Shown: positions 141 to 49,032, counted from the stretch's first letter. The stretch: DNA of 51,215 nt from a virus (IMGVR_UViG_3300035128_000044:1-51215), one strand, 5' to 3'. Notes: generated by a model not told the origin, from the letters alone. Numbers and translations are program-made.

Positions 141-2004
141 CAAATATCGAGATTTTAATAATCCATATTGGCCGCTTCCTTTGGATTATTCCGAGTTAAG
201 TTTGGACGGTCAGCGACAGGCCCGTTTAGGTGTTCTAACCAGAAGAAAAACTTTTTTGGATTTTGTTGTTGGTTGGTATTTCTTTCGCAATGTTTACCTA
301 AAAGGGGATAAAGAAACTTATTTCTACAAGGAAGGCCAATTGGAGTCTCCCGATTTTCACTACGATATGGAATGGGACATAGCCAAGTTTGCTAAGAATG
401 CCTACGCGGCTCCGAGAGGTAGTGCCAAATCAACGGTTATCACAGTTGAGAATACTTTGTATATGAGTCTCTGCGATGCACCAATTGATATAGGCTTATA
501 TTTTTCTACTGATAAGCAGAAGGACCCACGTTTTGACACCTTCATGTCCCAGTTGACTAATAATAAATTAATCATAGACGACTTTGGAATTCAAAAGCCC
601 AAACGAGGAACTGCTACTTGGAATCACTCCTATCTCCAATTACTAAATGGTTCTACTATCTCTGGTAGCAGTGTAATGGGAAAGGTTAGGGGTGGTCGTC
701 CAAGATTTCTTGTTCTCGATGATCCAGAGAATGACCCCGATAGTCCATCCGAGACAGCCAGACAGATTCTTATGGAGAAGTTTGAAACTATCCTCTTTAA
801 GAAACTTATCCCTATGCTTAATCCTGGCTCGATGATGTTTTGGATTGGAACATTAATTGATCGTAAATCTGCTTTGTATAGAGCCGTCCAAGGGGATGAC
901 CCCCGCTTCGATTATTGGAACAGAAAAGTTATTCGAGCTATTGCTTATGACCCTGATGACAAATCCAAATTTACCCTACTATGGCCGGAGAAATGGTCCA
1001 AAGATTACCTTGATGAGCAAAAAGGAGTTATAGGTGCTTCGGCTTTCGCGTCTGAATATTGCAATGAACCTATTTCAGAACAAGATAGAATCCTGAAAGT
1101 TGATGAACGTAAAAATGAATATACTGTTGAAGGAGATTTCGATTGGACTAATCCTCTTGCCAACACAAATAAAGTAAAATGGTGTGAAAGAGTTTTTGGA
1201 GATGAAAATGACCACAGAACCTATGAAGAAAAAGAAAAGCCGTTCAACGAGCTTGTTGGACCAATGTTTAAGTTCTTACTCTTTGACAAAGCACACGGGC
1301 TTACAAACAATCACGATTACTCGTGCATCGCTATCTGCGGGATCGATACTTTGGCGACTCTCTGGGTCCTGCACTTATGGCTCGGACGGGCCAAGGACGA
1401 TACTCTCATGCGGCTCATCTACGAATACGGGCTGGCTTGGCAGGTTCGGATTTTAGGAATTGAGTCGGTCTCTATACAAAAAACATTTGCGGAGGCTCTT
1501 ACTGAGTATATGCTGGAGCAGGGGGATATTAGAAATGACAAATGGAGAGGTCGCGTATTTCCTATTACATATCCAGCTAAGGAATCAAAGGCAGATAGGA
1601 TTGCTTCTTCTGAATGGAGATTTAACTCCGGTCGAATAAAGTATCCGGCACATCTTCAAGATAAATGGCCTTACAACCAATTATATGCTCAAACTGCTGA
1701 TTTTACTTTGGATTTAGCTTTGCTACAACATGACGATGCTATTGATACCATTTTAGGTATGCCCAAATATGTAATAAAGACTAAAGGTGGTAGATTCAAA
1801 AGGGAAAGAGGAAAAGATACTATTGAAGAAAAAATAAAACGTGGGGAGCAGTTTCATAATGGTCTTCCTATTCTTTCCGGGATTCCTCTAAATAAAATTA
1901 CTGATGAAATGACAAATATAATGGCTCACAAGGCCAGGGAACGTCAAAAGCGTCCAGATAACCGTAGGTTAGAAAGAAGAAATATACGAATCGTAAGACC
2001 ATAA
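124..2004 (+). CDS. terL: Terminase large subunit
   Basis: Walker A-like APRGSAKST, Walker B LVLDD, GGRP, LLWPEKW, SEYCNEP, nuclease DYSCI and HDDAID. Confidence 0.93.
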   Translation: MSHWIDKYRDFNNPYWPLPLDYSELSLDGQRQARLGVLTRRKTFLDFVVGWYFFRNVYLKGDKETYFYKEGQLESPDFHYDMEWDIAKFAKNAYAAPRGSAKSTVITVENTLYMSLCDAPIDIGLYFSTDKQKDPRFDTFMSQLTNNKLIIDDFGIQKPKRGTATWNHSYLQLLNGSTISGSSVMGKVRGGRPRFLVLDDPENDPDSPSETARQILMEKFETILFKKLIPMLNPGSMMFWIGTLIDRKSALYRAVQGDDPRFDYWNRKVIRAIAYDPDDKSKFTLLWPEKWSKDYLDEQKGVIGASAFASEYCNEPISEQDRILKVDERKNEYTVEGDFDWTNPLANTNKVKWCERVFGDENDHRTYEEKEKPFNELVGPMFKFLLFDKAHGLTNNHDYSCIAICGIDTLATLWVLHLWLGRAKDDTLMRLIYEYGLAWQVRILGIESVSIQKTFAEALTEYMLEQGDIRNDKWRGRVFPITYPAKESKADRIASSEWRFNSGRIKYPAHLQDKWPYNQLYAQTADFTLDLALLQHDDAIDTILGMPKYVIKTKGGRFKRERGKDTIEEKIKRGEQFHNGLPILSGIPLNKITDEMTNIMAHKARERQKRPDNRRLERRNIRIVRP

Positions 2005-2007
2005 TGG

Positions 2008-2036
2008 TTGAATTATTTTTAATTTTATGTTACAAT
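2008..2036 (+). promoter_or_regulatory. Sigma70-type promoter
   Basis: TTGAAT-N17-TACAAT with TG extension, upstream of a GAAAGG RBS. Confidence 0.6.
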
Positions 2037-2061
2037 TAGAGAATGAGAAAGGACTACCTTT

Positions 2062-2358
2062 ATGTTTGATTGGGTTATTTATGCGATAATTGTGGTTGCA
2101 ATTTGTGTTACAGGTATGGTTATGATGCTTGCTTCGTTAGTAAGAGAGACTTGTAACCGATTAACTAAAACCAATGAACAACTTATGATATTGATTTCTA
2201 CTCGTAGTGGTAATGAAGCTGGGGCCAGAGCTTTAGTAGCCTCCGCAAGGTTGCCTCGTGGTAATTTATCAGGGGTTGTAAAACAGGAAAGCAAAAAAGA
2301 GGTAGAAAAGGAAAAAGAAAAACTGGGTGTTAGCTTTACAAAAGGTTATGGATTATGA
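2062..2358 (+). CDS. Small membrane protein
   Basis: N-terminal hydrophobic helix, GAAAGG RBS. Confidence 0.7.
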   Translation: MFDWVIYAIIVVAICVTGMVMMLASLVRETCNRLTKTNEQLMILISTRSGNEAGARALVASARLPRGNLSGVVKQESKKEVEKEKEKLGVSFTKGYGL

Positions 2359-4951: not shown

Positions 4952-5989
4952 ATGTTCAAAAAAATGTGGAATAAATTCGGATTTTATAACCATAACGCAA
5001 GATTTTTTGCGGACGATGACGGTAGTGGTGTGGGTGACCCCGGTGTAGATGGTGGAAATGTAGGTGATGGACAAGGCGGCGGTGCTGGTGATACCGGTAA
5101 TAACAATAATAATGATAATAGCAATAATAACGACCAGAATCAGGGCAAGACCCCCTTCATGGAAATCACAGTTGATGGGGAAACACGACAATTAACTAAA
5201 GAAGAAGCTATCGCGTTATCCCAAAAAGCAGCCGGAGCAGAGAAAAAATTCCAAGAAGCCGCCGAAATGAGAAAACAAGCTCAGAATGGTTTACGAATCC
5301 AGGAATTATACACACGATTTTCCGACCCTAACCATGAGCCTACAGATGTTGAGATAAAAGAATTTGCTTCATTTATGAATATTTCAGCCGAGGAACTTAT
5401 GAGTAAGATAGATGGAAACTCAGTAGGTAACGCGAACGACAATAAAGGTAGTAACAACCACCAAGCAGGTAATACTAATTTTGACTTTGATGCAGAGTTT
5501 CAAAAGAGGTTTGGGAAAAACCCTGCGGAGGTTGCAGCAGGACTTGCTTACACCGAAAAGCAACATATCGAAAATTTTAAGCTAAATTTGCGAAAAGAAT
5601 CCGATAATATGGTTGACAAAGATGAGATTTTTGGTAAAATAATAATAGACGAGGATGAGAAGATTTCTCAGTCTCGTCAAGAAGTCATTAAAGAAGAAGT
5701 TTATGACGAGGTTCTCAGCAAAATTAAAGATGGCATAGATAAACAAACCGCTTTGACCGAGGCTATCCAAAAGGTACGCTCTCGTATCTCACGGTTTGGT
5801 ATATCCAGTAAGCCGGGACAATATCCTGTTACGTTAGGACTTGTTCCAGGACAGAGCTTGCCTACCGAGGTTACGTCTGAAAAGCCAATTGAAAGGGTTG
5901 ATGCTTCTGATGACAACGCAGAGACGAATTTTGTTAATAGATACCTGCAAAAGGGTATCAGTGCTCTGAGGTCAAAAGTTAAGAAATAA
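4952..5989 (+). CDS. Capsid scaffolding protein
   Basis: Located before the capsid gene; acidic/Gly/Asn-rich N-terminus, ITVDGETRQLTKEEAIALSQKAAGAEKKFQEAAE coiled segment; GAAAGG RBS before ATG 4952. Confidence 0.8.
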   Translation: MFKKMWNKFGFYNHNARFFADDDGSGVGDPGVDGGNVGDGQGGGAGDTGNNNNNDNSNNNDQNQGKTPFMEITVDGETRQLTKEEAIALSQKAAGAEKKFQEAAEMRKQAQNGLRIQELYTRFSDPNHEPTDVEIKEFASFMNISAEELMSKIDGNSVGNANDNKGSNNHQAGNTNFDFDAEFQKRFGKNPAEVAAGLAYTEKQHIENFKLNLRKESDNMVDKDEIFGKIIIDEDEKISQSRQEVIKEEVYDEVLSKIKDGIDKQTALTEAIQKVRSRISRFGISSKPGQYPVTLGLVPGQSLPTEVTSEKPIERVDASDDNAETNFVNRYLQKGISALRSKVKK

Positions 5990-7825: not shown

Positions 7826-9622
7826 ATGGCTGCAACAGTCCCATTAAGACTCTCCGAAATGGTTCGTAAATATGGTTGGAATATACTTGCGTATCTTGCC
7901 AATCTTGGAATTAAAAACCTTGCGGAGGCTCAAATTTTATTTGTAGATGCAAATGCTACGGAAGCCTTGGATGCTGATGATAGTGTTCATGGTCATTCAA
8001 TAAAAACACCCCTCGCTACAGTTGATTATGCTATCGGTCTTTGTACTGCCAATGAGCGTTCTATTATTTTAGTCGCTCCGGGTCACTATGAAGATTTCGA
8101 TGATACTACAACTGGATTCGATGCAGATGTCGCCGGAATATCCATTATAGGAATGGGGGAAGGAAGTCTCCGTCCAAGATTTGATTTTAATCATGCTAAT
8201 TCAAAATGTATTATAGGTGCAGACGATATTACTTTGAAAAATCTTGTTTTCAGACCAAGTGTAACAGTTGTAGGAATCGGTTTGGATTTGGAAACTGGAA
8301 TTACTGGGTGTATCCTTGAAGATTTAGAATTTGCTATGGGGGAAGCCGGGGATGGCACAGATGAATTTGTTAAAGCTATTCATTTGACATCTGGAAATAA
8401 TGATACTGTAATGAAGAATGTTAAGATTTTCTCTCATGCAGATTGTGATGGAGCTACTCATGGAATCCATGTTGATGCTGCATCCCACAGACTAACATTT
8501 AATAATGTTATTATAGATGGTGCGTACACTAATGGTATCGCTGAGGACGCTGCTGGATTAAATCATATTATGGTCGGTTGCTCCGTTGATGTTGGAACAA
8601 CTAACTATGGTTTTAATGCAAGTTCTACTTTTGCCAAAAGAACTGGTAATCTTGATGCAGGAGCTTCCGAAGATACAGCAGAAAATCTCATTGGCCGTAA
8701 TGATAGTAATAATGCAGCCGATACTTCTGACGTAGTTGATAACAAAGATGGTTCTGTTCTTGAACGTCTTGAAGATATTAAAAATAGAGTTCAGGACCCC
8801 TCCGGCAGAACTGCTTCTGAATCTTTTTATGTTGACGCTGCTATTTCTTCCAGTGGAGACGGTTCTTCTTGGGAAAATGCTTTCAAGACAATAACAGAGG
8901 CTATAGCTGTTGCCACCACTGTTGGCGACAAGATTTTTGTAGCTCCCGGAGATTATGACGAAGATGCAACAGTTGCAGTAGCAACTAACGGTCTTCATAT
9001 TATTGGTCCCGGCCCTGAAACGCAGAACAAAGCAATGATTTATGGCAATGGTGGAGCTTACGATTTAATGACGATTAATGCCCACGAGGTAGTGATTGAT
9101 GGTATAGCTTTTTCTGATGCTAATGATAATTATGATGGTATTGTAATTGGAGGCTCCTCCGCAAGTTACAAAGTCACCATTCGTAATTGTCGTTTTGATG
9201 GCTGGGATGGTGAATATGGTATCCAAGCTGGTGCTGTTAATGATTGTCCTGATTTACTAATTGAAAATAATCTCTTCCGTAGTTGGAACACTGCTGCAAT
9301 TCAAGTAAACTGTACAAGGTCCTGCATCAGAAATAATATCTTCCATGTTGTTACGGATAAGATCGGCATTGAGCACGTTCCTGCTGGTGGTAATAGACCT
9401 GACAATGTTTATATTGATAACCTATTCAGTGGGGTTGCTAATGCTTCCACAACGGGTATCAAATTTACGGGTGCTCCCAGTAACGGTACTTGTATTACAG
9501 CAAGGAATTTATTTGCTGGGACATGGGACACTGTTATAACTCAGGTCGCCGCTTATGTTGGTATTAATAACTACCAAGGCAATGCCGATGGTGGGGTTTT
9601 AATAGACACCTGCTCAGGCTAA
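7826..9622 (+). CDS. Virion protein with two tandem right-handed beta-helix (pectin lyase-like) domains
   Basis: Two copies of the F.VDA...G.S...(PLAT/AFKT)...AI......I.VAPG.Y cap motif followed by parallel beta-helix repeats. Confidence 0.75.
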   Translation: MAATVPLRLSEMVRKYGWNILAYLANLGIKNLAEAQILFVDANATEALDADDSVHGHSIKTPLATVDYAIGLCTANERSIILVAPGHYEDFDDTTTGFDADVAGISIIGMGEGSLRPRFDFNHANSKCIIGADDITLKNLVFRPSVTVVGIGLDLETGITGCILEDLEFAMGEAGDGTDEFVKAIHLTSGNNDTVMKNVKIFSHADCDGATHGIHVDAASHRLTFNNVIIDGAYTNGIAEDAAGLNHIMVGCSVDVGTTNYGFNASSTFAKRTGNLDAGASEDTAENLIGRNDSNNAADTSDVVDNKDGSVLERLEDIKNRVQDPSGRTASESFYVDAAISSSGDGSSWENAFKTITEAIAVATTVGDKIFVAPGDYDEDATVAVATNGLHIIGPGPETQNKAMIYGNGGAYDLMTINAHEVVIDGIAFSDANDNYDGIVIGGSSASYKVTIRNCRFDGWDGEYGIQAGAVNDCPDLLIENNLFRSWNTAAIQVNCTRSCIRNNIFHVVTDKIGIEHVPAGGNRPDNVYIDNLFSGVANASTTGIKFTGAPSNGTCITARNLFAGTWDTVITQVAAYVGINNYQGNADGGVLIDTCSG

Positions 9623-11125: not shown

Positions 11126-11505
11126 TGTTAGGAATGACAAGCATTTATAAACGTTCTGAGCACACATTTATAGGTGGGGAACTTGGAGAGTATATTAAAA
11201 ATCTTGCGGAGGAATCGAAAAGACCCTTATTTTTACTTCGTTATAATAAATTGGGTGTCTTTTGTATTTGTGAATGGATGTCCCCCAACAAAGATGTTTT
11301 TGTTGATGTTATGAATTTAGATAAGTCCCTTGGGAACTTTACAAGAGCTATGGCTGAGGAATTAAGGCATAGGCTATTTGCTCCTGTGTCATGTGCTGAA
11401 ACAAGTAAAGCCATAGCCTCCGCAGAGAGTGATTACTACCATATGAGGCAGGATGAAAATTCAGAAGAATGGGACCGTCAAGCAAGAGTTTTAAGTGGAG
11501 AATAA
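11125..11505 (+). CDS. Hypothetical protein
   Basis: TAATG coupling, GGAG RBS. Confidence 0.65.
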   Translation: MLGMTSIYKRSEHTFIGGELGEYIKNLAEESKRPLFLLRYNKLGVFCICEWMSPNKDVFVDVMNLDKSLGNFTRAMAEELRHRLFAPVSCAETSKAIASAESDYYHMRQDENSEEWDRQARVLSGE

Positions 11506-14185: not shown

Positions 14186-17100
14186 ATGACTCTTCTGTTC
14201 TCTGAAAGTGGTATGTCCGAAAACGCAGAAGTTTCCAATCCAGCCCTCCAAGGACTTTTTATTCCTGCAATAGATAACCCAGTAGGTTCAGATGGTTTTG
14301 GTATATCTATTCCCTGGGGAGGTGGGGATTCCGCGAGAAATTATTCAGAGTATGGTCCTTCGCAAAGCAACTCTGCGGAGGCTACACAGTTAAGAGACCT
14401 TGCAGACATATCTTTTGGTGGTAATATTTCTTTTGATACAGAGGGTTTAATTGGTCCCCAAGGAGTACAAGGACCTACTGGACCCCAAGGGCCGCAAGGA
14501 ATTCCGGGAGTGGCTTTTTTCCCAACTAATTTTATTACAGATTTTTCCGAAATTCAAAAAGATATTAATTCCGTGTGGGGTTCCGATGGTTCCGCGGATA
14601 CGATGTTATATGCCAGTGAAGTTATAAAAAAATGGAATATTACATGGTTACCTTTCGATATAGACTCTGGCGTTAGTGCTTGGAATGATGTATGTATGGA
14701 TTTGGATGGTTCCTTTATTTCAATAGCTTCCAATGGAAGTATTTTTTTATCGACTGATTCTGGAAGCAATTGGAGTGAAAAAATACCAGAGGTAGATAAT
14801 TTTAGTGCTATAAGCTGTAATACCCTGGGAAGTAAAATAGTTACTATAGGAGATAACAGTAAGTCGGAAGGAAATATATGGACATCAGATGATTATGGAG
14901 AGAACTGGAGTGAAGTTGCTGTCACAGGGGACGACCAACCAACTGGTTCTGATTTATGCTCAGGCACTACAGACCCAACAACATTATCTGATAGCGTATT
15001 TGAAACAAGAAGTATAGCTATAGATACGCCTATTACTTTGACAAGTGGCACTCAGTATGCTATTGTTGTTGGGGGTGTGGGCATAAATGGAACTGTCGGG
15101 GTGTATTGGTTAGCTAATGTGGGTAGTTACCCCAACGGTTCTGTTTATCATTCCCATGATGCGGGAGTAACATGGGACCAAAATGCTACGGGTTTATTAT
15201 ATGATAGCTGGTTTCAAACGTTTGAGGGTGCTGCTTATCGAGACCAATACACTCCTACTGGGTCTAATGGTTGGCAATGTTCTAATCTTAATTGGTTTGC
15301 ACAAACTTTTGTAGCATCCTCAACTTATGAGATTAGTAAAATAAACTTAAAATTAAAACGTAATTCCTCATTATCGGCGGGGACACTCACAGTAGGAATT
15401 CGGGCTGTTGCTCCATCAGGGACAATTAATGATGCTTTTCTTGGGGCAGGGGGTTCATTTGTTACGGTTGCGACCTCTTTTGGAGTAAGTCTTTCAACTG
15501 ATTTTGGAAGTAATTGGTCTTACTCATATCCCGATGGTGGAGCAACTAATTGGGAAAGAATAATTTGTAGTACTGATGGAACTTATATTTATACTTGGGA
15601 TGACAACGATAATATTTATCGAACTGCAAATGGAGGAACTTCTTGGGCTTCTACCACTCCTGCTGGAGGAGATACCTTTAGTCCTAACGATATAGCGATA
15701 AGTTCTACCGGACAATTTGTTATAATAGTTGGAAGTAATTCCACCGATACTTCTAAAAGTGCTTACTTGTCCTCTGATTACGGGGTTACTTGGACAGTGG
15801 TAAACCCAACTTCAAACGTTGTTGTGTGGGATGAGTGTACGATTGATAACTCCGGCAACACAATGACGGTTGTAGATTCTTCCTTAGGTTATTTTTATGC
15901 TTCTTTCGATGGAGGAACGACATGGAAGAGTCAAAATATTCCTGCCACATCCTCGGATAGAAGTTCAATAGCTATAAGTGGGGATGGCTCTCTTGGTGTT
16001 GTCTGTAATACCGATGATAACAACGAAGTATTTTATAATTCCGGCTATTACTCAGAGCTAACTATAACCGATACGCCAATAACCTCCGCAGGTCGCTCCT
16101 TAATGGATGATGATACTGCGGTGGATCAAGTTGTGACACTTGGGTTTACCGAAACTGCGGAGGATATTTCAGACCATATTTTTAGCGATGGCAGCGACCA
16201 CTTATTTATCAATCAAGATGTTACAATATCCTCCTCTCCTACTTTTGTGACGACCGATTTAACGGATATAACGGATAGTAATATTCCGTTTGTTGGGGCC
16301 GGTGGTTTTGAAGATAGTCCTATTACAACAGATGGAGTTGATATAACTGTTAGTGGTAATATAATAGCTGATACTATAGACTTAAATGATATTACAGATG
16401 GAAATGTTCCGTATATGTCCGGTTCTGGATTCGCGGATAGCCCTTTAACTACTGACGGAACCGATCTTGTTTCTACCGGAAATCTTACTATTAGTCATGG
16501 GGATTTTCATAGTGATTTAAGATTAATAGCAACATCCTGTGATTTAACTATTGGTTCTGGAACAGCATCTACAGTAGATGGTTGTGACTATACTGCTAAC
16601 CGAGAAAATAAGGGTGTTGCATTAAGAATGTTCCCAAATGGAACTTCACAATTATCTACCATACAATTATCTAATGACACGGATACCTCCAACTTTAGTG
16701 GCTTAGGAATTAGAGTAGATGAAGATACTGGGTACATAGAGCCTTTAGCCGCAGGTACTCCTGCTACGCCGTTAACAGTTTTAGATATAACAGTTGCCAC
16801 AACCTTCAGTAGTGCATTAACGGCTGATGATGTTGTTACTGTAAACGCAGATTCAAATACACAGGATATTTACCCACTTGCAGAGGATATGTATTCGTTA
16901 GGTAGAGTGGATAAATCATGGAACTCTTGTATTATAATGGACACCACTAACGGGAAACCGTACAGAATAGAAGTTATATCTGGAAGCCTGACGGCAACCA
17001 GTATTCTTGAGGCGGATTTATCTGCTTATTATAAGATGAATGACAATGCCGCTTCTACGGACGTTATTGATGAGACTGGAGTTAATAATGGAACAGCACA

Positions 17101-20391: not shown

Positions 20392-21462
20392 ATGGCTACT
20401 GATTTTTCGACATACTCAAAAAAGGTAGAGCAAGCTGCTGTTGACACAAGGAATATTGGGGATACCTCAATGGACCCCATTAAGAAAGCTGCTTCTTCGT
20501 TGCAAATGTCTTCTACGCCAACGACTAAATCTACCTCTGTTCCTCCGGGCATTAGAAGGCCAGTTTCAAGAACTCCGGCAGAACAACAGCAATCTTCTAA
20601 TATTTATTCCACGGTTGCGGATGCCGCGATTAAAAATTATGAACAACAAATACTTAGCACTCAGAAACAAGCCAACCGTTCTGCAAATGCTTTGGAAATG
20701 ACTGGAAAAGCTACAGAGGAATATATATCTAATCTTGATACTATTAATGAAAATTTTCAGAATAGAGTTTCCAGTACTCAGGAGGCATTTTCTGCTGCTG
20801 CTGAAAAAGCGGATGAATATGTCCAAGCTTCCAAAGGAAGGGTTAATGAGGTTCTCGCAAAGCTTGATGAGATAAATACACAGATAGCTAAAGACCGGGA
20901 TTTTGCTAAAGCACATGATATGCAAGCCGCTGTGCAAACATCCTTAGCTTCGATGAAAGCTGAGGAGAGAAACATTCTCGAAACTTACGGAACTGATAGC
21001 AAAGAATTTATGCAGTTCCAGCAGAGTAAAAGGGCTTCACTTACAACTATACAAAGTAATATTCAAGCTAATTATGCTAACCTTGCGGAGGACCACGCTA
21101 AAACATATTTGGGTATTGTTGAGAGTGCCTATACTAAATCGAATATGTATTTAGGTTATCAGGAACAACAGCATGTGGAAATGCTTAAATATCAAGCTGA
21201 GCAAGAGGCCGCTTATAATATGCAAGTTGCCCAATTCCAAACAAGTATTGAGCAATTAAAAATGGCTGGAAAGGAAAACTTAGCTAATTGGTTGATAGAA
21301 ACTCCTTCTTTTGCTATGGATTCTACTCCATTAGTTACTTTGATAGCGGACTTGGCTCAAACCCAGGAAGCTAATAGATTAGCAGAGAAACAAATGAATA
21401 GTTCTAACCAAGGAACAAGTTCAAGAACAGTAAATTCTTACTCTGGATTTAGGAGCTTATAA
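20392..21462 (+). CDS. Putative internal virion/ejection protein
   Basis: Gln/Ala-rich helical protein after the nozzle. Confidence 0.55.
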   Translation: MATDFSTYSKKVEQAAVDTRNIGDTSMDPIKKAASSLQMSSTPTTKSTSVPPGIRRPVSRTPAEQQQSSNIYSTVADAAIKNYEQQILSTQKQANRSANALEMTGKATEEYISNLDTINENFQNRVSSTQEAFSAAAEKADEYVQASKGRVNEVLAKLDEINTQIAKDRDFAKAHDMQAAVQTSLASMKAEERNILETYGTDSKEFMQFQQSKRASLTTIQSNIQANYANLAEDHAKTYLGIVESAYTKSNMYLGYQEQQHVEMLKYQAEQEAAYNMQVAQFQTSIEQLKMAGKENLANWLIETPSFAMDSTPLVTLIADLAQTQEANRLAEKQMNSSNQGTSSRTVNSYSGFRSL

Positions 21463-28799: not shown

Positions 28800-28988
28800 A
28801 TGAGTTTTAGAAAAACAAAAGCAGGAGTTACAATATGTCCATTTTTCACTTGGACATCCGAGAATATAGGCGAAATGTGCAAAAGTGAAAGTCACGAAGA
28901 CGATGTGAACCTAACCCATTGTACACATAAGGATAATCCAGACCACCTTGAAGGAAATTGTACAATAAAGAATTGCCCCTTATTATGA
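28800..28988 (+). CDS. Small Cys/His-rich protein
   Basis: CPFF...HCTH...EGNC...CPL. Confidence 0.6.
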   Translation: MSFRKTKAGVTICPFFTWTSENIGEMCKSESHEDDVNLTHCTHKDNPDHLEGNCTIKNCPLL

Positions 28989-32767: not shown

Positions 32768-32953
32768 TAAGGTAATGGAAGAACAAGGATATGACGGAAC
32801 TAAAATCATATCTTTTGACAACTGCATAACGCATAAAAGGAGTTCGACAGTCAACCTTACTTCTTCCACTTTTTTTTAACCTCCGCAGATTGGGAGTCAT
32901 GCTGGCAGCCGCCTCTTGGCTCCCGTCGTTTTTTAACCAGAAAGGGAAATCAA

Positions 32954-33238: not shown

Positions 33239-33399
33239 TTAAAGAATCTTTTTACTGGACAATTGCTTTTTATAAGAAACTATTTAATCTTAGAAAAACC
33301 AAATCTGCTAAAGCTATTTTTACTCTTGTAGCAGTCTTCACTTTTCCCATTGATTTTGTATTGGACATAATAAGAAGAAGTAGAGGGTTTTGGAAATGA
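33235..33399 (+). CDS. Small membrane protein
   Basis: Not in the track; ATGA overlaps on both sides; AIFTLVAVFTFPIDFVL hydrophobic stretch. Confidence 0.55.
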   Translation: MIKESFYWTIAFYKKLFNLRKTKSAKAIFTLVAVFTFPIDFVLDIIRRSRGFWK

Positions 33400-33743
33400 T
33401 TCAACCAAATAAAAATATCAACAGGAGTACTTTTCAGAGACTTCAATCAGAAGCTTATGAGAGATTTCGAATAAACTTATTTAATGCTATTCAACAAAAG
33501 CTTAATGATTATGAAATGGGCTGGAAAGAATTAGCTCAGATGCTTAGCACTAATAGTGTGTATGAGGAATTCTTAAAAGTAGACAAGGACTCTGGTTTAC
33601 TAAGAATGATAACCGGGGATGAGCTTAAAGCTAAACTGGGGGACGACCCACTAACTTTGGAGGAACTTAACATGATAGCCAGTTGCTTCTCCTGTGATAT
33701 TCAAATTATATTTAAGCCCCGTTATCCTTACACGTGCACATAA
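33396..33743 (+). CDS. XRE/Cro-like HTH protein
   Basis: GWKELAQMLS...LTLEELNMIASCFSCDIQIIFKP pattern. Confidence 0.5.
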   Translation: MIQPNKNINRSTFQRLQSEAYERFRINLFNAIQQKLNDYEMGWKELAQMLSTNSVYEEFLKVDKDSGLLRMITGDELKAKLGDDPLTLEELNMIASCFSCDIQIIFKPRYPYTCT

Positions 33744-33803: not shown

Positions 33804-35072
33804 ATGAAAATAGTAAAACTAACCGCAGAGAATTATAAAAGATTATCAGCCGTAGAAATCACCCCCGAAGGAAATTTAGTTCTGATAACTGGCAAGAATG
33901 AAGTTGGTAAAAGCAGTGTTCTTGATGCGATAACTGCCGCTCTATGCGGTGGACGCAATTTGCCGAAGGAGCCTATAAAACAAGGGGAGCATCGAGCTTC
34001 TATTGTTGTAGATATGGGCGACTATACCGTGACACGTAAATTCTTCGGCGAAAGAACTACCCTTAAGGTAGAACAAAAAGGGGAACTTACTTCAAAAATT
34101 TCAAGACCTCAAGAATTTCTTGACTCGATTGTCGGAAATATTTCATTTGATCCATTAGCTTTTTCCAAAATGCAGGAATCCGAGCAACGGAAATTAATTA
34201 TGGGTTTTGTCGGACTGGACCTAAGGGACCTCGACAAAAAGATTGAGGAAATAAAAGCCAGACGTTCTGAAATCCGCAAAGAGAAGGATATTGCTGAAAC
34301 CTTTGCAATGACGATAGAATACACGCCGGACATGCCCAATGAGGAGATTAAACTTGATGATTTATTTGCTGAAAAAAAATCTATCGAGGAATTCAATACA
34401 AAAGCAAATGAATCAAATTCACATCGAACATTATTAATTCAAAATTATAATAATATAGCTAATAATGCGAAGGAAACCGCCGCAGAGATTCAGCGATTAA
34501 CTGAAAAGCTTAAGAACCAACAAATACAGTGTACAGAAATTAAAGAGGAACTCGACCGTACCCCTGTTACTTCTCTGAAAAATATAAATGAGATAGAATC
34601 AAAAATAGTTAGCATCGGAGCCACTAACGAAAAAATAAAAAATAATCGTGACAAGAAAAACTACCAAAAACAAGTTGATACCCTTGCGGAGGAATATTCC
34701 AGCTTAGGTCAAAGCATTAAAGACATTGAGTTTGAAAAAGCTAAAAGGATGACCGACGCCAAAATGCCTATCGCTGGTTTAACCATTGCCGAAGATGGCC
34801 TCAGATTCAACAACATTCCTCTAAGCCAAGTAAATGATGCAAACAAAATAAAGATAAGCGTTGCAATTGGTATGGCAATGAACCCAAAGCTTAAAGTTCT
34901 TCGTGTTAATGGCAATGACCTTGATACAGCCAACTTGAAAGCTCTTGGGGAAATGGTCGCGGACAAGGACTACCAAATATGGGTGGAAAAAATAGATGAA
35001 TCCGGCAAGCTTGGTTTCGTTATCGAAGACGGGACCTTAACAGCTGATAAAACTGCGGAGGAACAAAAATGA
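33804..35072 (+). CDS. SMC/RecN-like ATPase with coiled coil
   Basis: MKIVKLTAENYKRL, ITGKNEVGKSSVLDAI, long coiled coil, degenerate ABC signature. Confidence 0.82.
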   Translation: MKIVKLTAENYKRLSAVEITPEGNLVLITGKNEVGKSSVLDAITAALCGGRNLPKEPIKQGEHRASIVVDMGDYTVTRKFFGERTTLKVEQKGELTSKISRPQEFLDSIVGNISFDPLAFSKMQESEQRKLIMGFVGLDLRDLDKKIEEIKARRSEIRKEKDIAETFAMTIEYTPDMPNEEIKLDDLFAEKKSIEEFNTKANESNSHRTLLIQNYNNIANNAKETAAEIQRLTEKLKNQQIQCTEIKEELDRTPVTSLKNINEIESKIVSIGATNEKIKNNRDKKNYQKQVDTLAEEYSSLGQSIKDIEFEKAKRMTDAKMPIAGLTIAEDGLRFNNIPLSQVNDANKIKISVAIGMAMNPKLKVLRVNGNDLDTANLKALGEMVADKDYQIWVEKIDESGKLGFVIEDGTLTADKTAEEQK

Positions 35073-36094
35073 ATTTCGATAATCTAAATCTACTACCTAT
35101 GGCATGTCGCCAATCCACAATATCCTGTGCTTTACATTGTCCCCGCAAATGGTTCTGTCAATATAGACTTGGCATCACTCTTCGAGGTGGGGAACGAAAA
35201 GACTCTGCAAATCTTGGAACAGTATATCATAAATTCCAACAGCTTGGCCCCGGAAAAGAAAACGAAGTAAAAAAATGGGTTATGGATTGGCAGAAGGAAC
35301 TAATGGCTCAAGTCGATAAAGGAGAGGATTTAGATGGAAACATTCTTCATACCGCAACCCTGCTTACAGATTTATACAACAAAGCCTTAGTTATGGCCAA
35401 AATATTTTGGAAGAGATTTCCACAACCTTCTTATTTCAAAGTTTTAGGTTCCGAGATTCATCATAAAACTTATGTCGCTGGGTTGATGCTGGAAGGAACT
35501 ATTGATAAGCTTTTACTAAATACACAAGATAATCGTATTTGGATACGGGACCATAAATCTACCGGGGATACGATCGAAAAAGTATTTGCCGGAATTTCTT
35601 GGTCACTTCAAGGACGAATTTATAGGATAATCACTATGGATTATCTCAGAAAAGTTCTCGGAATGGAGGCCGTGGCAAGCGGATTTATTCTCGATGGAAT
35701 AATGTTCCCCGGCATAAAACTTTGCAAAACCGATATTAAAAATGCTAAAAGTTGGAATGTGTCCGAAGAAGAAGCATACCTCCGCAGGGTTGAAGAGTGG
35801 TATGACGATCAAATGGAAGCTGCTATTCGTTCCCGAAGTATGATGTTTAATGAGCCACTCTATCCCGATGAATTGCGAACTGATTTGGGTATGATGAAAC
35901 ATTTGGAAAGCTTAGGAAATCACCCAAAAGCTTACCGAAGAGACGAGTCCCGAAATTCTTGTTTTGTTTACAAGAAAACTTGTATATATCACGATTTATG
36001 TGAAACAAGTCCTGAGCAATGGGACGGTTTGTTTGGTACCAAGTATAGGATTGAAAAACCTGCGGAGGAAACTGAAAATGAAGAGAAGAATTAA
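35069..36094 (+). CDS. PD-(D/E)XK Cas4/RecB-like exonuclease
   Basis: CPRKW, GTVYH, EGTIDKL, IRDHKST, C-terminal C...CIYHDLC. Confidence 0.85.
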   Translation: MNFDNLNLLPMACRQSTISCALHCPRKWFCQYRLGITLRGGERKDSANLGTVYHKFQQLGPGKENEVKKWVMDWQKELMAQVDKGEDLDGNILHTATLLTDLYNKALVMAKIFWKRFPQPSYFKVLGSEIHHKTYVAGLMLEGTIDKLLLNTQDNRIWIRDHKSTGDTIEKVFAGISWSLQGRIYRIITMDYLRKVLGMEAVASGFILDGIMFPGIKLCKTDIKNAKSWNVSEEEAYLRRVEEWYDDQMEAAIRSRSMMFNEPLYPDELRTDLGMMKHLESLGNHPKAYRRDESRNSCFVYKKTCIYHDLCETSPEQWDGLFGTKYRIEKPAEETENEEKN

Positions 36095-36747: not shown

Positions 36748-37659
36748 ATGGTTGAAACAAATAACGTAAATCCAGTCGTAGATACGGCTCCTAATAAATG
36801 CCCAATAGTACCCTCTGATTGGATGGCTCTCGGTGCTGAAACCGGATACAAGCCAAAAAAAGCAGAGGAATTAAATCTCTATGTCGTAGGTCCAAGTGGG
36901 GAAGGTAAAACTACCTATATATCGAGTATCCATAATAATATGATTCTTGACTTCGATGAACGTGCGGAGGCCATTCCTGGGACTCGTTCTATTAGAATTC
37001 CAATCAAGAGCTATAGTCAATTAACAGATATAAGAGGAAAAATGTTAGATGACTATAAAGCTGGTAATAGGAGGTTTGTAAGAACTTCTATTGATACCTC
37101 TGATGAATGTATAGCCATGATTAAGCACCAACTGGAGAAAGAAAAGTCAGTCGAAGATATAACAGATTATCGCTCGGAGGGTTACGGATACAACTTAATT
37201 CTGCAAAGATTCTGGTCTATTATTTTAGATATTCAAATGGCCGGAATGTCTTGGGCTATTGCCGGGCATATAAAATATAAGAATGAGGTCGATCCTGCGA
37301 CTAAAAAAACTGTAACTCGTTTGAGGGATGCAGTTTATCCATGTGTCTCTAAAAAGATTCTTACCAAGTCGGACTTCAAACTCACCATTTACTGTCAACC
37401 GGAAACAGTAAAAACCACTCTTCCTCCTAAAATAGTTATGAATGGGGGGCAGAAAATAGAAGTTCCACAATCCAAAGAGGAGGTAGTAACTTCATATTTT
37501 CTTAACTCTTTAACTATAGATAAATACGGGACCAATAAAGCCAGTGGAGTCCCCACTATGCCAAGAAAAATACAGCTTCCGCTTATAGGAGGTTGGGACG
37601 TTTTCAAAGCCTATTATGAGAAAGCCGTAAATGAAGCCCGACAACGTTGGGGTTCGTAA
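36748..37659 (+). CDS. Sak4-like (AAA_24) recombination ATPase
   Basis: VVGPSGEGKTT, ILDFD, SIDT, IAGH; lies between exonuclease and SSB. Confidence 0.8.
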   Translation: MVETNNVNPVVDTAPNKCPIVPSDWMALGAETGYKPKKAEELNLYVVGPSGEGKTTYISSIHNNMILDFDERAEAIPGTRSIRIPIKSYSQLTDIRGKMLDDYKAGNRRFVRTSIDTSDECIAMIKHQLEKEKSVEDITDYRSEGYGYNLILQRFWSIILDIQMAGMSWAIAGHIKYKNEVDPATKKTVTRLRDAVYPCVSKKILTKSDFKLTIYCQPETVKTTLPPKIVMNGGQKIEVPQSKEEVVTSYFLNSLTIDKYGTNKASGVPTMPRKIQLPLIGGWDVFKAYYEKAVNEARQRWGS

Positions 37660-38357: not shown

Positions 38358-38690
38358 GTGGAAAAATTAGCCTCAAGGTATGTCGAAAATAACCTTGAAC
38401 CAGCCTTGAGGCTTTTCTATTACGAGGAAAAAATGTGTGACCCAGACTATATTGAAGAACCAGAACAAAGAAAATGTCATCATTGTGAAACTTGTGAAGA
38501 GGATGGAGACATGATTAGGGAAGCCCACTGTGAGGGTGGTTTTGGACTACTTCACTGTGAAAGTTGCTCAGAGGAATGTGATATTTGCGGGGAACTCTAT
38601 TGTAAGGGACTCTTAGAGGATTTCGATGGGGGAGAAACATATGGAGATATTGTTATTTGTAAAAATTGTAAAGAGGACCTTGAGATATGA
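38358..38690 (+). CDS. Cys-rich acidic protein
   Basis: Multiple CxxC pairs; start uncertain. Confidence 0.55.
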   Translation: MEKLASRYVENNLEPALRLFYYEEKMCDPDYIEEPEQRKCHHCETCEEDGDMIREAHCEGGFGLLHCESCSEECDICGELYCKGLLEDFDGGETYGDIVICKNCKEDLEI

Positions 38691-39124
38691 GTGAAACTAT
38701 TAATATACCTGTTACCTTTAGTCCCCATTTTGTCAATAAACAGCCCAGAGGTTACTATCTTCTGGTTCAAAGATTATTTCGCAAGGGTTCTCCACATCTG
38801 GTTAAAAAGCAATTTATCGGTTATACCCAAAGTGGTTTAGTTATGACCGTTGGCTATAAAAGTAATATTATTAATCTATTCGGAATGACGATTTTCAAAC
38901 CGACATTAAATCAGGAAAGAGTTACATGGTTATCCGAGTGTTCAATTTTTCCAATGAGAATGGGTTTCAAAGCTTATATCCCAGTCTCAATTTTACAACC
39001 CTCCGCAGGGTCTGGGAAGATAGAAACAACCGCTACTTTCAGAGTAGATGAGGATTCCAGCACGTACTATATTAAAATAGGTAGAATCACAGCGGAGGTT
39101 CTACTGGGAAAGGTATCACTATGA
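38687..39124 (+). CDS. Hypothetical protein
   Basis: ATGA coupling on both sides. Confidence 0.65.
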   Translation: MSETINIPVTFSPHFVNKQPRGYYLLVQRLFRKGSPHLVKKQFIGYTQSGLVMTVGYKSNIINLFGMTIFKPTLNQERVTWLSECSIFPMRMGFKAYIPVSILQPSAGSGKIETTATFRVDEDSSTYYIKIGRITAEVLLGKVSL

Positions 39125-39947: not shown

Positions 39948-40533
39948 TTACTCGAATATACAGCCTTCTATGATTTGTATTGAGGATATTGCTCATAGCT
40001 TGGCTTTAACTAATCGTTATAATGGTATGACAAGATACCCTTATTCAGTTGCAGAACATTGTGTTAGAATGGCTTTATGTGATGACTTGCCGGGACATCC
40101 TTTAGCCAAGTTGTTACATGATGCAGCCGAGGCTTATATAGGTGATATTGTTAAGCCCTTCAAAGCTGGTTTGCGTTATTTGGAACATGGATTCGAGGAG
40201 AATGAACGTTATTACTATAAGATAGAGACGTTAGAGCACGAGATTCAAAATGCGATTCTAAAAGCTTTCAATATCAAAGTAAAGATGGGTCAACGAAACG
40301 AGGATTTGGATTGGATGTGGTTAAATTCATCCGAAGTAAAACATTCGGATATGGCTATACTTGCGGAGGAATGTAATGTACTAATGCCAGATAATGAGAT
40401 AAGTAAAAAGGAATTTGAAAAATGGCTCGCAGGTGTAACTCCATCAAAAACTGGATTAACACATTGGAATATATATCCTTGGTTGAAAGCGAGAACGTTA
40501 TATTATAACACTTTTAAGGAACTCACGAAATGA
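39907..40533 (+). CDS. HD-domain phosphohydrolase (YfbR/YfdR-like)
   Basis: IEDIAHSLA..NRYNG, YSVAEHC, LLHDAAEAYIGDI. Confidence 0.88.
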   Translation: MGTAIVTYTGKIFDYSNIQPSMICIEDIAHSLALTNRYNGMTRYPYSVAEHCVRMALCDDLPGHPLAKLLHDAAEAYIGDIVKPFKAGLRYLEHGFEENERYYYKIETLEHEIQNAILKAFNIKVKMGQRNEDLDWMWLNSSEVKHSDMAILAEECNVLMPDNEISKKEFEKWLAGVTPSKTGLTHWNIYPWLKARTLYYNTFKELTK

Positions 40534-44008: not shown

Positions 44009-44047
44009 ATCCTCTTAAAAAATTTTCAATCCTCCGCAGTTTTTTAC

Positions 44048-44076: not shown

Positions 44077-44094
44077 TTAATCAGGGGAGACGAT

Positions 44095-45880: not shown

Positions 45881-45901
45881 GGTAAGTGGGGTTTAGTGTG
45901 T

Positions 45902-46885: not shown

Positions 46886-47050
46886 GGTAGGCAAAGACCC
46901 TTCATATTTAGGACAACCCTTAAAATTCTCCATTCTACTTAGTAGAATATCCCCGATTCTACTTCGTATTCGTTCTAACGTTTAGAATTTTTCCTTCATA
47001 TTCTAAATTGTAGAAAAAGTGCACCCCCGTTATTCGCTCAAAAATGAGAG

Positions 47051-47325: not shown

Positions 47326-47355
47326 AAAAAAAAAGCCGCCTCGCGGGAGACGGCT
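47326..47355 (-). terminator. Intrinsic terminator of the helicase operon
   Basis: AGCCGTCT-CCCGCG-AGGCGGCT followed by a T-run on the minus strand. Confidence 0.75.
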
Positions 47356-47387
47356 ATATGGAGGGTATGAAGAGTGAAATGACTTAA

Positions 47388-47648
47388 TTAAATCTTTTCT
47401 TGAACGCCTTCAAATACATATACTCTTTTACCTATTTTACCTTTTCTGACTTTACTCATTTTCGGGAAAACACTACGAACTGCTTTACCAAAAACTCTAA
47501 TATTACAAGGACCATATCCTCGTGATATTATCCATTTTCTATAAACTTCATACAAAATTTTAACTTCTATCCAAACAGAATCGTCAGGTATAAATTCATA
47601 ATTTTCTCTTAAAAATATCTTACTCATTTTTATGCCAAAATTATTCAT
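47388..47648 (-). CDS. Stand-alone winged-helix protein paralogous to the helicase C-terminus
   Basis: FLRENY...LYEVYRKW...GY.P...RVFGKAV..VFP...YVFEG aligns with the helicase tail. Confidence 0.75.
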   Translation of the reverse strand: MNNFGIKMSKIFLRENYEFIPDDSVWIEVKILYEVYRKWIISRGYGPCNIRVFGKAVRSVFPKMSKVRKGKIGKRVYVFEGVQEKI

Positions 47649-47649
47649 A

Positions 47650-49032
47650 TTATTTCTCCTTCAATTTAGGTTTTGTTAAATACCCCTGGACTTCCGCTCC
47701 GACCTGGAACTTCAATCCCTCATATACATAATGCCTATACTCTCTTCCTCCGATCCTTCGTTTAGCAGTTTGTGGAAAGGCTCTAAGCACCTCCTTGCCA
47801 AATGTCCTATCGCTCATCGGCTGGTAGCCCTTTTCCCTGCACCAGATTCGATAAATCTTGTAAACAGTCTCGGTTCTAACACCCAATGGATATGTCGAAT
47901 CATAATAATAATTCTCTCTCAAATACATACCAGCCGGATTCGATTCCTCCTTAAACCTTCTCCAAACAGCCTCACTCGCTTCCGGCTTACAGAATCCTCC
48001 ATTAGCTTTTAGCTTCATCATACCCATAATAGCCCAATTCAGAATACCAGGCATCTCAGCTTCCAACTTCGCATCCAAATCTGGGTCAACCTCCGCAGTG
48101 TTTCGAACGAACGGCACAACTTTTAACCTTCTCCAGGTTCCCATACTCTTATCCGTGAAATTTGGAAAATCATTACAAAGAACCATAAGCTTCGCAGTTG
48201 CCTCGGCTGTAAATGCGTCTCCCCATTTTCTTTCAAAATCCAAACCATCGGCTCCGGTCCAGGTTTTAATAACAGCTTCGATCTGTGGTGTGAGTTCCTG
48301 CTCCGCGTCTCCGGCCACATTCAGCTTTTTCCCAAAGGTCATATAAAGTGAGAAATTATTACCAAACCTGCGGAGGGGTAAATCACTACAATTATTTCGA
48401 CCGAGCATATTTTTCATCGCTCTGGCAAACGTGCTCTTTCCGGCTGCCGCTTCCCCAATACATAAAAGGAAGCATTGGTATTCTTGGGTAGGCATTAATA
48501 GGTATCCAGCCCACATTTGAAGAAGTTCCTGTAATTCTTTATCCCCACTGGTAATTTCCTCCATAAATTGCAACCAACGAGTACATTTTGCATTTTCATC
48601 GAAATCATAGGGAAGCTTATTAATCGTGAAGAAATCTGGGGTCTTGGCCGATTTGGTAATCGTCCCATCCGGCATAAACGTTAAAATCCAATTATTTAAT
48701 ACAATTGCTTCAACCGTTTTATTCGGTTCTTTATCGGTAAGCCAAGTATTCAAAAGTCTACCGTACGGAATGTTGGCCTGGGCTTTAAGATTTAATCGAA
48801 TATTCTCAATTAGTTTTGTGCTTGCTTCGACATGGTTTTTCGCCGCGAACTTCACAAGAAAAGCTGTGAGATCATTTTTATTTACTTTTTGATAAACACT
48901 TCCATTCCATAGGTAGAAGTCGTCCCGCCAAAAAATTAGAACTTGTTTTTTCTCCCCATTGAATTGTTTATGGCCTATAGCCTGAAAGAACCCATATGCA
49001 ATTCCGGCTGGAGTTGGTTTATCCTTGTCCAT
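47650..49032 (-). CDS. SF3 (D5/P4-alpha-like) helicase lacking an N-terminal primase domain
   Basis: LPYDFDENAKCTRWLQF, GEAAAGKST, IKTWTGAD, CNDFP, WRRLKVVPF, C-terminal winged helix. Confidence 0.88.
   Translation of the reverse strand: MDKDKPTPAGIAYGFFQAIGHKQFNGEKKQVLIFWRDDFYLWNGSVYQKVNKNDLTAFLVKFAAKNHVEASTKLIENIRLNLKAQANIPYGRLLNTWLTDKEPNKTVEAIVLNNWILTFMPDGTITKSAKTPDFFTINKLPYDFDENAKCTRWLQFMEEITSGDKELQELLQMWAGYLLMPTQEYQCFLLCIGEAAAGKSTFARAMKNMLGRNNCSDLPLRRFGNNFSLYMTFGKKLNVAGDAEQELTPQIEAVIKTWTGADGLDFERKWGDAFTAEATAKLMVLCNDFPNFTDKSMGTWRRLKVVPFVRNTAEVDPDLDAKLEAEMPGILNWAIMGMMKLKANGGFCKPEASEAVWRRFKEESNPAGMYLRENYYYDSTYPLGVRTETVYKIYRIWCREKGYQPMSDRTFGKEVLRAFPQTAKRRIGGREYRHYVYEGLKFQVGAEVQGYLTKPKLKEK

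Follow-up and report, generated by a model that had tools for sequence, protein, structure and literature searches.

A short asymmetric DNA word held at high density on both strands in a clade of uncultivated tailed phages

We analyzed a viral DNA stretch of 51,215 nucleotides (IMGVR_UViG_3300035128_000044:1-51215) that carries, scattered over its length, many copies of the octamer TGCGGAGG, the core of an extended nine-letter consensus, CTGCGGAGG. The stretch, referred to here as the window, is the whole 51-kb record of one virus and contains no N. The word is an asymmetric site of about 10 bp. Long-term selection has maintained its density on both strands, at roughly one copy per 1 to 1.5 kb, throughout a large clade of uncultivated tailed phages with genomes of 50 to 57 kb. 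Very probably, some protein reads it.

Abundance of the word in the window

TGCGGAGG occurs 34 times in the 51,215 bases, with 18 copies on the plus strand and 16 on the minus strand, and the density of CTGCGGAGG over both strands is about 1 per 1.5 kb. Every coordinate and strand listed for these copies in a first-pass annotation of the sequence proved exact. Dinucleotide-preserving shuffles (n = 100) contained on average 0.65 copies and at most 3, none reaching 34. An order-3 Markov model predicts 1.45 copies, and the word is the top over-represented octamer of the window. The first-pass annotation had named a count similar to that of codon-shuffled controls as evidence against a real signal; synonymous-codon shuffles (n = 200) that kept the proteins and the codon usage gave a mean of 2.14 and a maximum of 6, as compared to the 34 observed, and the signal was not refuted. 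The observation of a dispersed word is confirmed and is stronger than first described, since the initial account of the site lacked the extended site, the frame bias, the even spacing per strand, the tail-to-tail rule and the variant motifs reported below. Among the titles listed by a literature search with the word and the 9-mer, on either strand, none presents it as a signal, although the ranking may hide one and supplements were outside its scope.

Anatomy of the site and reading frames

As noted at first pass, a pyrimidine precedes the octamer in 32 of the 34 copies (C in 23, T in 9, A in 1 and G in 1). None of the copies has G at position -2, and all but one of the 34 have A or C at position -3. 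Among 242 sites from six relatives, position -1 is C in 88%, G accounts for only 4-5% at positions -2 and -3, and the 3' flank is uninformative. The octamer TGCGGAGG forms the core of a 9-11 bp asymmetric site that prefers C at -1 and disfavors G at -2 and -3; its consensus is CTGCGGAGG.

Greedy calling of open reading frames (ORFs) resulted in 72 ORFs that cover 95% of the window, and 33 of the 34 copies lie inside them, 19 in sense and 14 in antisense orientation. The frames named in the first-pass annotation (Ala-Glu, x-Ser-Ala, Pro-Pro-Gln and Leu-Arg-Arg) are all present, but their usage is strongly biased: 17 of the 19 sense copies read xxT GCG GAG Gxx (Ala-Glu) and 11 of the 14 antisense copies read xCC TCC GCA (Ser-Ala), the Leu-Arg-Arg and Pro-Pro-Gln frames being rare. 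Five frames are used in all, plus intergenic DNA. GCG is the rarest Ala codon of the window (113/1084), yet GCGGAG is its top Ala-Glu dicodon (21/88), and TCC-GCA is its commonest Ser-Ala dicodon (13/76). Among the contexts that can host the word silently, 17 of 32 x-A-E-[GAVDE] and 11 of 21 [APST]-S-A carry it. In each of six genomes compared, there are more Ala-Glu dipeptides than expected (for example, 88 vs 66 in the window and 104 vs 82 in the relative G008). The frame-biased placement therefore puts the word where its protein cost is least, and the excess of Ala-Glu suggests that it has bent protein sequence as well as codon choice. The proposal that the constraint acts on DNA rather than on protein is upheld, given that the excess survives codon-preserving shuffles and that the word is conserved across a diverged phage clade.

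Two copies had been placed in intergenic DNA next to promoters. The copy at 44031 is clearly intergenic, yet it has no strong promoter-like site nearby. The copy at 32880 lies 113 bp downstream of a perfect promoter and between plus-strand genes, but inside a doubtful minus-strand ORF of 68 aa. The GGAGG of two sense copies lies 7-10 nt before an ATG (35054-35071 and 36061-36080), which is the position of a Shine-Dalgarno sequence.

The 34 copies are listed below (relatives G001 to G003 are described in the following section).

1488..1495, plus: sense F-A-E-A, terminase large subunit gene (124-2004; named TerL by homologue sources)
2240..2247, minus: antisense A-S-A-R, ORF 2062-2358
5524..5531, plus: sense P-A-E-V, ORF 4937-5989
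7921..7928, plus: sense L-A-E-A, ORF 7826-9622
9156..9163, minus: antisense S-S-A-S, ORF 7826-9622
11205..11212, plus: sense L-A-E-E, ORF 11092-11505
11417..11424, minus: antisense A-S-A-E, ORF 11092-11505
14374..14381, plus: sense S-A-E-A, ORF 14186-17680
16083..16090, minus: antisense T-S-A-G; left half of the closest tail-to-tail pair of the window (73 bp)
16156..16163, plus: sense T-A-E-D; right half of the tail-to-tail pair with 16083
18260..18267, minus: antisense T-S-A-V, ORF 17707-20343; same place in G002
18602..18609, minus: antisense S-S-A-V; same place in G002
20214..20221, plus: sense S-A-E-D; same place in G002
21084..21091, plus: sense L-A-E-D, ORF 20392-21462; kept in G002
21588..21595, minus: antisense A-S-A-N, ORF 21467-22708
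22887..22894, minus: antisense T-S-A-E, ORF 22709-23104
23838..23845, plus: sense, rare frame L-R-R-G, ORF 23513-26632; kept in G003
24870..24877, minus: antisense S-S-A-Y
26170..26177, plus: sense T-A-E-G
26274..26281, minus: antisense A-S-A-E
29258..29265, minus: antisense P-P-Q-G, UDG-PolA gene; kept in G001
29638..29645, plus: sense P-A-E-V, UDG-PolA gene; kept in G001
31468..31475, plus: sense P-A-E-E, UDG-PolA gene
32880..32887, minus: between plus-strand genes, downstream of the sigma-70-type promoter 32739-32767
34685..34692, plus: sense L-A-E-E, AAA_23 (SbcC-like) gene
35054..35061, plus: sense T-A-E-E; GGAGG 7 nt before ATG 35069, the start of the PD-(D/E)XK gene
35779..35786, minus: antisense Y-L-R-R, PD-(D/E)XK nuclease gene; kept in G002 and G001
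36061..36068, plus: sense P-A-E-E, PD-(D/E)XK nuclease gene; kept in G001
36963..36970, plus: sense R-A-E-A, AAA_24 gene
39000..39007, minus: antisense P-S-A-G, ORF 38687-39124
40362..40369, plus: sense L-A-E-E, HD-type dNMP phosphatase gene
44031..44038, minus: intergenic, motif-poor accessory region
48090..48097, minus: sense T-A-E-V, minus-strand D5/DUF5906 helicase gene
48369..48376, plus: antisense P-L-R-R, same D5/DUF5906 helicase gene as 48090

Conservation, turnover and drift among relatives

A search of IMG/VR with the portal protein returned 7 loci (49-96% identity), all of which carry the word. Three of the relatives, with their G+C fraction (GC) and the counts of the word and of a reversed-word control (forward + reverse), are as follows.

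G001: 30.9 kb; GC 0.47; copies 20 + 15; control 0 + 2
G002: 55.5 kb; GC 0.42; copies 25 + 21; control 0 + 3
G003: 42.7 kb; GC 0.55; copies 25 + 22; control 4 + 2

In these three genomes, too, the word is the top octamer, and synonymous shuffles contained far fewer copies than observed (5.0 vs 46 in G002, 6.4 vs 47 in G003 and 4.9 vs 35 in G001); the GC of the window is 0.385. Further relatives contain 33 (G005), 39 (G007) and 42 (G008) copies. Pooled over seven genomes, there are 236 copies of CTGCGGAGG vs 4.2 expected.

A scan with a terminase profile retrieved 62 loci. At a terminase identity of at least 50%, 43 of 44 loci carry the word, at 0.3-1.6 copies per kb, the sole exception being a 4-kb fragment (L033), whereas the 15 loci with an identity of at most 27% have 0 or 1 copy each. 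Clade fragments with a GC of 0.59-0.60 are also dense, and the GC of the clade spans 0.385-0.60. At E values up to 1e-20, there are 173 terminase relatives, and the best 120 of these 173 are all from metagenomic or unnamed sources. Three terminase homologues of 916-1025 aa (P0117-P0119) contain intein/LAGLIDADG/Hint Pfam families, and some terminase genes of the clade appear to be intein-split.

The number of copies is conserved to a larger degree than their places. Sites of the window are kept at the aligned orthologous place in 6 of 27 cases in G002, 2 of 20 in G003 and 5 of 10 in G001, and the reverse comparison gave the same kept numbers. In alignments of orthologues, conserved residues usually come with the exact word, and where the word is absent the residues often differ. 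Density, not place, is therefore what is maintained. Density also varies with gene class. In six near-complete genomes it is 0.84 per kb in genes common to at least four of the five others, 0.55 per kb in genes shared by fewer and 0.40 per kb in genes without homologue; for unique genes, it drops to 0.14 per kb in the window and 0.08 per kb in G004. Similarly, the accessory-rich last 10.8 kb of the window has 0.28 copies per kb vs 0.77 elsewhere.

The motif drifts along the phage tree, and two deep branches use the variants CTGCGGAGGC and CTGCGGGGC. G005 (terminase identity 50%) has 27 of 30 copies in the form CTGCGGAGGC. G004, a complete record with a terminase identity of 47%, contains no TGCGGAGG at all, but 29 copies of CTGCGGGGC and one of CTGCGGAGC, on both strands; its form is that of G005 minus the A. 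In the main group, only the neighbor words TTGCGGAGG (33 vs 4.6), CTGCGGGGG (26 vs 4.6) and CTGTGGAGG (15 vs 3.7) are in clear excess and no one-letter neighbor is depleted, which makes a Vsr-like repair bias unlikely.

Arrangement on the two strands

The ratio between strands is 18:16 in the window and ranges from 15:16 to 25:21 in the seven relatives, and the initial description of a dispersed site without polarity relative to transcription holds. The order of strands is not random, since it alternates above chance in all eight whole genomes (runs z 1.07-2.81); the window has 25 runs vs 17.9 expected. The copies on each strand are about 2.5-3 kb apart, and the coefficient of variation of these gaps is 0.40-0.96 in the eight genomes, where random scatter would give 1.

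Close pairs have a preferred polarity. The prevailing form, termed tail-to-tail, is CCTCCGCAG..CTGCGGAGG. Pair counts by orientation are as follows.

Pairs within 100 bp, eight genomes: tail-to-tail 14; opposite 0; plus-plus 3; minus-minus 2
Pairs within 100 bp, distinct, in loci found by protein homology only: tail-to-tail 23; opposite 4; plus-plus 1; minus-minus 5
Pairs within 400 bp, distinct, in loci found by protein homology only: tail-to-tail 76; opposite 30; plus-plus 15; minus-minus 12

Binomial p values for tail-to-tail vs opposite pairs are 3e-4 (within 100 bp) and 9e-6 (within 400 bp); both are optimistic because homologous pairs were removed only when letter-identical. Most close tail-to-tail pairs are intragenic, and their spacers are unrelated. 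Such polarity would be expected if something moved or extended one way from each site.

Occurrence outside the clade

An IMG/VR scan for tail-to-tail pairs returned dense loci that are clade members, plus two further contigs, L142 (6 copies) and L134 (5 copies), for which 0.26-0.27 copies were expected. Neither had a tblastn match to any clade protein, and the genes of L142 form a siphovirus-type head-to-tape-measure module. L334 came from a second scan; it has 6 copies in 8 kb, a GC of 0.39 and a tail module of the tape-measure/J-like type. The capsid protein of L142 has relatives in contigs with 2 copies in 20 kb (70% identity) and 0 copies in 7.6 kb (68% identity). No longer contigs of the L142/L134 and L334 lineages were found, and these lineages are known from short stretches with no replication genes in view.

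A candidate third lineage, G009 (L159+L160, 29.7 kb, GC 0.60), was dropped, since it has only 13 TGCGGAGG vs 3.3 expected. It has almost no protein match to the clade, and GCCGGAGC occurs there 17 times vs 2.5 expected, 14 of them on one strand. Other phage loci (L292/L293, L299, L289-L291 and L059) have strongly over-represented words of their own, namely, AAGTGTGCA (6 vs <0.1), CTGGGGGAAC (6 vs 0.1), TACCGGTA (6 vs 0.2) and GTGTCCTA (8 vs 0.2, in G002). Phage genomes may often contain dispersed words.

Bacterial genomes were inspected for a host that shares the word. Our sample consisted of 712 genomes, of which 201 were from Bacteroidota, 251 from Pseudomonadota, 151 from Bacillota, 101 from Desulfobacterota (9-mer) and 8 from others (8- or 9-mer). 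None of the 712 showed an enrichment near the density of the phages or of Chi in Escherichia coli; this sample covers some phyla only. The highest count was obtained for Leyella stercorea (G017), with 96 CTGCGGAGG vs 6 for the reversed control in 3.2 Mb, and a Synechococcales metagenome-assembled genome had 39 vs 1; both are far below phage density. The copies in L. stercorea (L186, L233) include several close tail-to-tail pairs about 40-50 bp apart and possibly belong to a small repeat element unrelated to the phages. A scan of genome contigs for tail-to-tail pairs gave at least 120 matches; among the matches listed, the maximum was 5 copies in 8 kb and clade phages were absent.

Genes of the phage and candidate readers

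The window encodes a tailed phage, with a large terminase, a P22-like portal protein (just under the Pfam cut-off) and tail proteins. Its other genes include a fusion of a UDG-like domain with a family A polymerase, an AAA_23 ATPase, a PD-(D/E)XK nuclease, an AAA_24 ATPase and a radical SAM protein, as well as a D5/DUF5906 helicase with a winged-helix RFX domain on the minus strand. Also encoded are proteins resembling an ERCC4-type nuclease and SSB, an HD-type dNMP phosphatase and a protein to which PHROGs gives the name DNA topoisomerase. Among GenBank phages, there was no nucleotide match and no portal match, and the polymerase was matched distantly. No tRNA and no Rfam family were detected in the window. 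Genes are preceded by AAGG/GGAG-type ribosome-binding sites, which together with a perfect TTGACA-17-TATAAT promoter suggest that the host probably uses Shine-Dalgarno sites and sigma-70-type promoters. The promoter and the genes relevant to the reader are the following.

28958..31597, plus: UDG-like and family A DNA polymerase fusion; clade core gene, present in all relatives at 44-59% identity
31740..32321, plus: ERCC4-type nuclease-like protein, 193 aa; core gene, 53-73% identity; candidate nuclease
32739-32767, plus: sigma-70 consensus promoter (TTGACA, 17-nt spacer with TG, TATAAT) ahead of the replication/recombination gene block
33390..33743, plus: g37, small XRE-like helix-turn-helix (HTH) protein; kept in all clade genomes including G004; candidate reader
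35069..36094, plus: PD-(D/E)XK nuclease; clade core gene
36748..37659, plus: AAA_24 ATPase; clade core gene
38687..39124, plus: g44, all-beta protein of 145 aa with weak likeness to MraZ/B3 DNA-binding barrels; candidate reader, a lead only
50156..50632, plus: g70, 158 aa, winged-HTH-like core, upstream of the terminase gene; candidate reader, a lead only

The non-structural core of the clade comprises the polymerase, the ERCC4-like protein, the PD-(D/E)XK nuclease, the AAA_24 ATPase (a Pfam family that includes Sak4-type recombinases), the SSB-like protein, g37, g44, the HD phosphatase and g70. Among the 7 relatives compared, G002 alone shares the D5-type helicase and the topoisomerase-like gene with the window. 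G007 and G008 have AAA_25 helicase-like proteins and N6/N4 DNA methylases instead of the D5-type helicase, corresponding to a non-orthologous replacement (L081:1456-2550, L084:16224-17324, L083:12933-14300 and L084:13692-15272). The HTH, winged-helix and TOPRIM proteins named as possible readers at first pass thus vary in part within the clade, as the D5/RFX and TOPRIM-like genes show. Two small proteins of HTH type, g37 and g70, are conserved.

The structural model of g44 is confident and all-beta (pLDDT, predicted local distance difference test, 86.8), and that of g70 is middling (pLDDT 66.9), with a beta-HTH-wing core. For both proteins, searches of PDB sequences returned nothing below an E value of 0.04 and Foldseek returned no match at E 0.001 or better; an NCBIfam search of the candidate readers gave nothing. 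The g70 orthologue of G004, the genome with the variant motif, is the most diverged (29% identity vs 45-57% in the others), but this divergence is not specific because G004 is the most diverged genome overall (TerL 47%). BLAST detected no g70 homologue in G005.

Two regions of the window deserve mention. The 291-aa protein encoded at 27714-28589 (plus strand) matches the PHROG 'DNA topoisomerase' with an E value of 6e-108 and is present in G002 (67% identity) and in no other relative compared; in the protein Atlas it lies close to Top6A/Spo11 TOPRIM clusters (score 0.89), which is only a lead. The accessory block at 41500-47400 consists of small ORFs without homologue in the seven relatives, includes the radical SAM gene (44575-45186) and has a single copy of the word in about 6 kb.

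Interpretation of the word

The reading that we favor, tentatively, takes the word as the target of a DNA enzyme with strand specificity, either encoded by these phages or always brought along by them; its most likely role is that of a nickase or entry site. It is favored because the word spans a wide range of GC, drifts with the phage tree and is carried by the core recombination and polymerase genes, because close pairs are polar and because no enriched host was found. The reader would cut or enter at CTGCGGAGG, on one strand per site. The conserved DNA polymerase A and the recombination genes for the nuclease, AAA_24 and SSB would then be supplied by the 3' ends made there or by machines that load at the site. 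The excess, the selection on DNA, the conservation in the clade, the rules of spacing and pairing and the drift of the motif are observed, whereas the phage origin of the reader, its nicking and the gene that encodes it are inferred. The existence of a phage nick motif, TACTRTGMC, counts for a nick site.

Several observations weigh against this reading. The nicked phages compared here use one strand (tf and Rembedalsseter, with 14 and 13 nicks), whereas the 34-47 sites of the clade lie on both strands and their nicking is predicted from sequence. L142, L134 and L334 are short siphovirus-type contigs with the same word and the same flanks, yet with no detectable clade protein; a host-encoded reader is simpler for them because they share no clade protein, unless the reader gene moves between phages. 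No conserved protein can be tied to the word. The ERCC4-like assignment is weak (PHROG E 7e-8, Pfam below the cut-off). For g44, the best VIA Z values are 4.2 (MraZ) and 2.8-3.5 (plant B3 DNA-binding domains), which is below a meaningful level, and the fold matches of g70 to winged-helix and Xis-type DNA binders are all at E 0.16 or worse.

A more specific version, to which we assign a low probability, sees the sites as distributed origins of primase-independent replication. A clade-encoded nickase would cut the G-rich strand at each site, DNA polymerase A would extend outward with strand displacement, and the displaced products of opposite strands would be annealed and trimmed by the SSB, AAA_24, ERCC4-like and PD-(D/E)XK proteins. 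Only word-bearing DNA would be amplified, so that the word would be both self-mark and origin. Such a model would explain why both strands are used and the spacing is even, why close pairs are tail-to-tail (extension would not run off at a nick facing it), and why the helicase can be replaced while the polymerase-recombination module stays in the core.

The main rival is a host Chi-like signal, which is possible but somewhat less likely than the enzyme site. The word would be read by a RecBCD/AddAB-type helicase-nuclease of the host, and the phages would have gathered it in both orientations against degradation and to start recombination-dependent replication from either end. The density is similar to that of Chi-rich phages, the word is G-rich with 8-9 letters, and a variant occurs in a deep branch. 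Recently acquired DNA is poor in the motif, as is described for Rec modules in one account (PMC12315714). This rival keeps its weight because the word is also present in phage contigs without a clade protein match, close relatives of which lack it. However, the best of the 712 genomes reached only the 96 copies given above, and the strand ratio of 18:16 and the even spread differ from the documented ratios of 20:3 and 32:0 with clustering at one end. Documented Chi-rich phages lack a Rec module, whereas the PD-(D/E)XK nuclease, AAA_24 and SSB-like genes belong to the core here and bear sites. Moreover, the tail-to-tail rule is not predicted, since each direction of travel depends on the sites of its own strand, and a single word shared by hosts as different as those implied by a GC of 0.385-0.60 is a stretch.

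A site that is bound but not cleaved by a phage DNA-binding protein, serving as a packaging or condensing factor or as a self-mark that shields from a phage or host nuclease, appears unlikely. The conservation of g37 and g70 in the clade and the divergence of g70 in the variant-motif genome G004 would be in line with it, and an even cover of two strands suits a mark that is to be met from any point. Yet a passive site offers no reason for the polarity of close pairs, and the weak fold evidence, the missing BLAST homologue in G005 and the unspecific divergence in G004 weaken the case for g70.

Priming sites, also proposed in the first-pass annotation, are disfavored and appear improbable. If lagging-strand fragments of both strands began at the word, as a site for a primase or for helicase loading, this would account for a per-strand spacing of about 2.5-3 kb that is more even than random and serves both strands, and the window has a D5-type helicase with a winged-helix RFX domain. 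This gene, however, varies within the clade: its homologue is restricted to G002 among the 7 relatives, and G007 and G008 keep the same word with AAA_25 proteins instead.

Passive carriage of the DNA uptake sequence of a naturally competent host is very improbable. Density, equal use of strands, frame-biased placement and positional turnover resemble the uptake sequences of Haemophilus and Neisseria, but no counted genome came near one copy per kb, nor did any of the at least 120 listed pair matches in genome contigs; there is no known drive that would load lytic-type phages with uptake sequences, and the same word recurs in phages over the whole GC range. Finally, a readerless by-product of codon use, peptide repeats or context-specific repair bias is hardly credible: it could appeal to the strong bias toward Ala-Glu and Ser-Ala, but not to the codon shuffles, the use of the rarest Ala codon, the five frames and intergenic copies, or neighbor words that are mildly enriched in several cases and depleted in none.

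A short word that reshapes codon choice, and probably even protein sequence, in a widespread uncultivated clade points to an unrecognized DNA transaction on which these phages depend. If the reader is phage-encoded, it would be a candidate for a new sequence-specific nickase or binding protein with an evolvable specificity of 9-10 bp, represented by three natural variants, and would be relevant to the reason why certain phages introduce nicks into their own DNA, which according to a 2025 paper has been in question for 50 years (PMC11780129). If it is host-encoded, the word would be a host marker and the predicted Chi of an unknown bacterial group. In either case, the word is a cheap sequence tag for these phages in metagenomes.

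Comparison with known systems

Cluster A mycobacteriophage stoperators are asymmetric short words, present at 20-30 copies per genome, that bind the phage repressor and are oriented with transcription; the copies described here, 19 sense and 14 antisense, do not follow transcription. Uptake signal sequences of Pasteurellaceae and DNA uptake sequences of Neisseriaceae reach densities near one per kb, occur in both orientations and preferred frames and show positional turnover. They are, however, a property of the host chromosome driven by uptake bias, whereas the present word is found in phage genomes, and no such host was among those counted.

In the published account of Chi-rich phages (PMC12315714), lambdoid phages without a Rec module gather the Chi of their host, as illustrated by phage LLS with 23 Chi or one per 1.86 kb, as compared to one per 4.6 kb in E. 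coli. Their orientation is strongly biased (20:3, and 32:0 for the variant Chi of Pseudomonas), and the sites cluster toward the open end. Phages of hosts across Enterobacterales share one Chi, and Pseudomonas phages use a two-letter variant (PMC12315714). The clade shares with LLS and MD8 a G-rich octamer at about 1 per 1.5-2 kb that is common to relatives, replaced by a variant elsewhere and scarce in new modules. In contrast to those phages, which have a known host Chi, an orientation bias, clustering at the end and no Rec module, it has symmetric strands and a core Rec module.

The nick motifs of phages offer a further parallel. As reported (PMC3517423, PMC11780129), TACTRTGMC is an asymmetric 9-mer whose conservation and enrichment extend over 61 related Pseudomonas phages of little nucleotide similarity; 88% of its copies are in coding sequence, and it is described as of unknown function. 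Nicks in tf and Rembedalsseter are on one strand only (14 and 13 per genome), those of phiKMV-like phages are in the non-coding strand, and the nick consensus of T5 is R/GCGCRGG (PMC3517423, PMC11780129). The motifs of tf/LUZ24-like phages, phiKMV-like phages and T5 resemble the present word in that they are asymmetric, about 9 bp long, enriched family-wide and mostly intragenic. In tf and its relatives, there are 13-14 sites per genome on one strand, concentrated on one side, and the nicks are demonstrated physically, whereas the phages analyzed here carry 34-47 evenly spread sites on both strands, with close pairs mostly tail-to-tail, and are recognized from their sequences.

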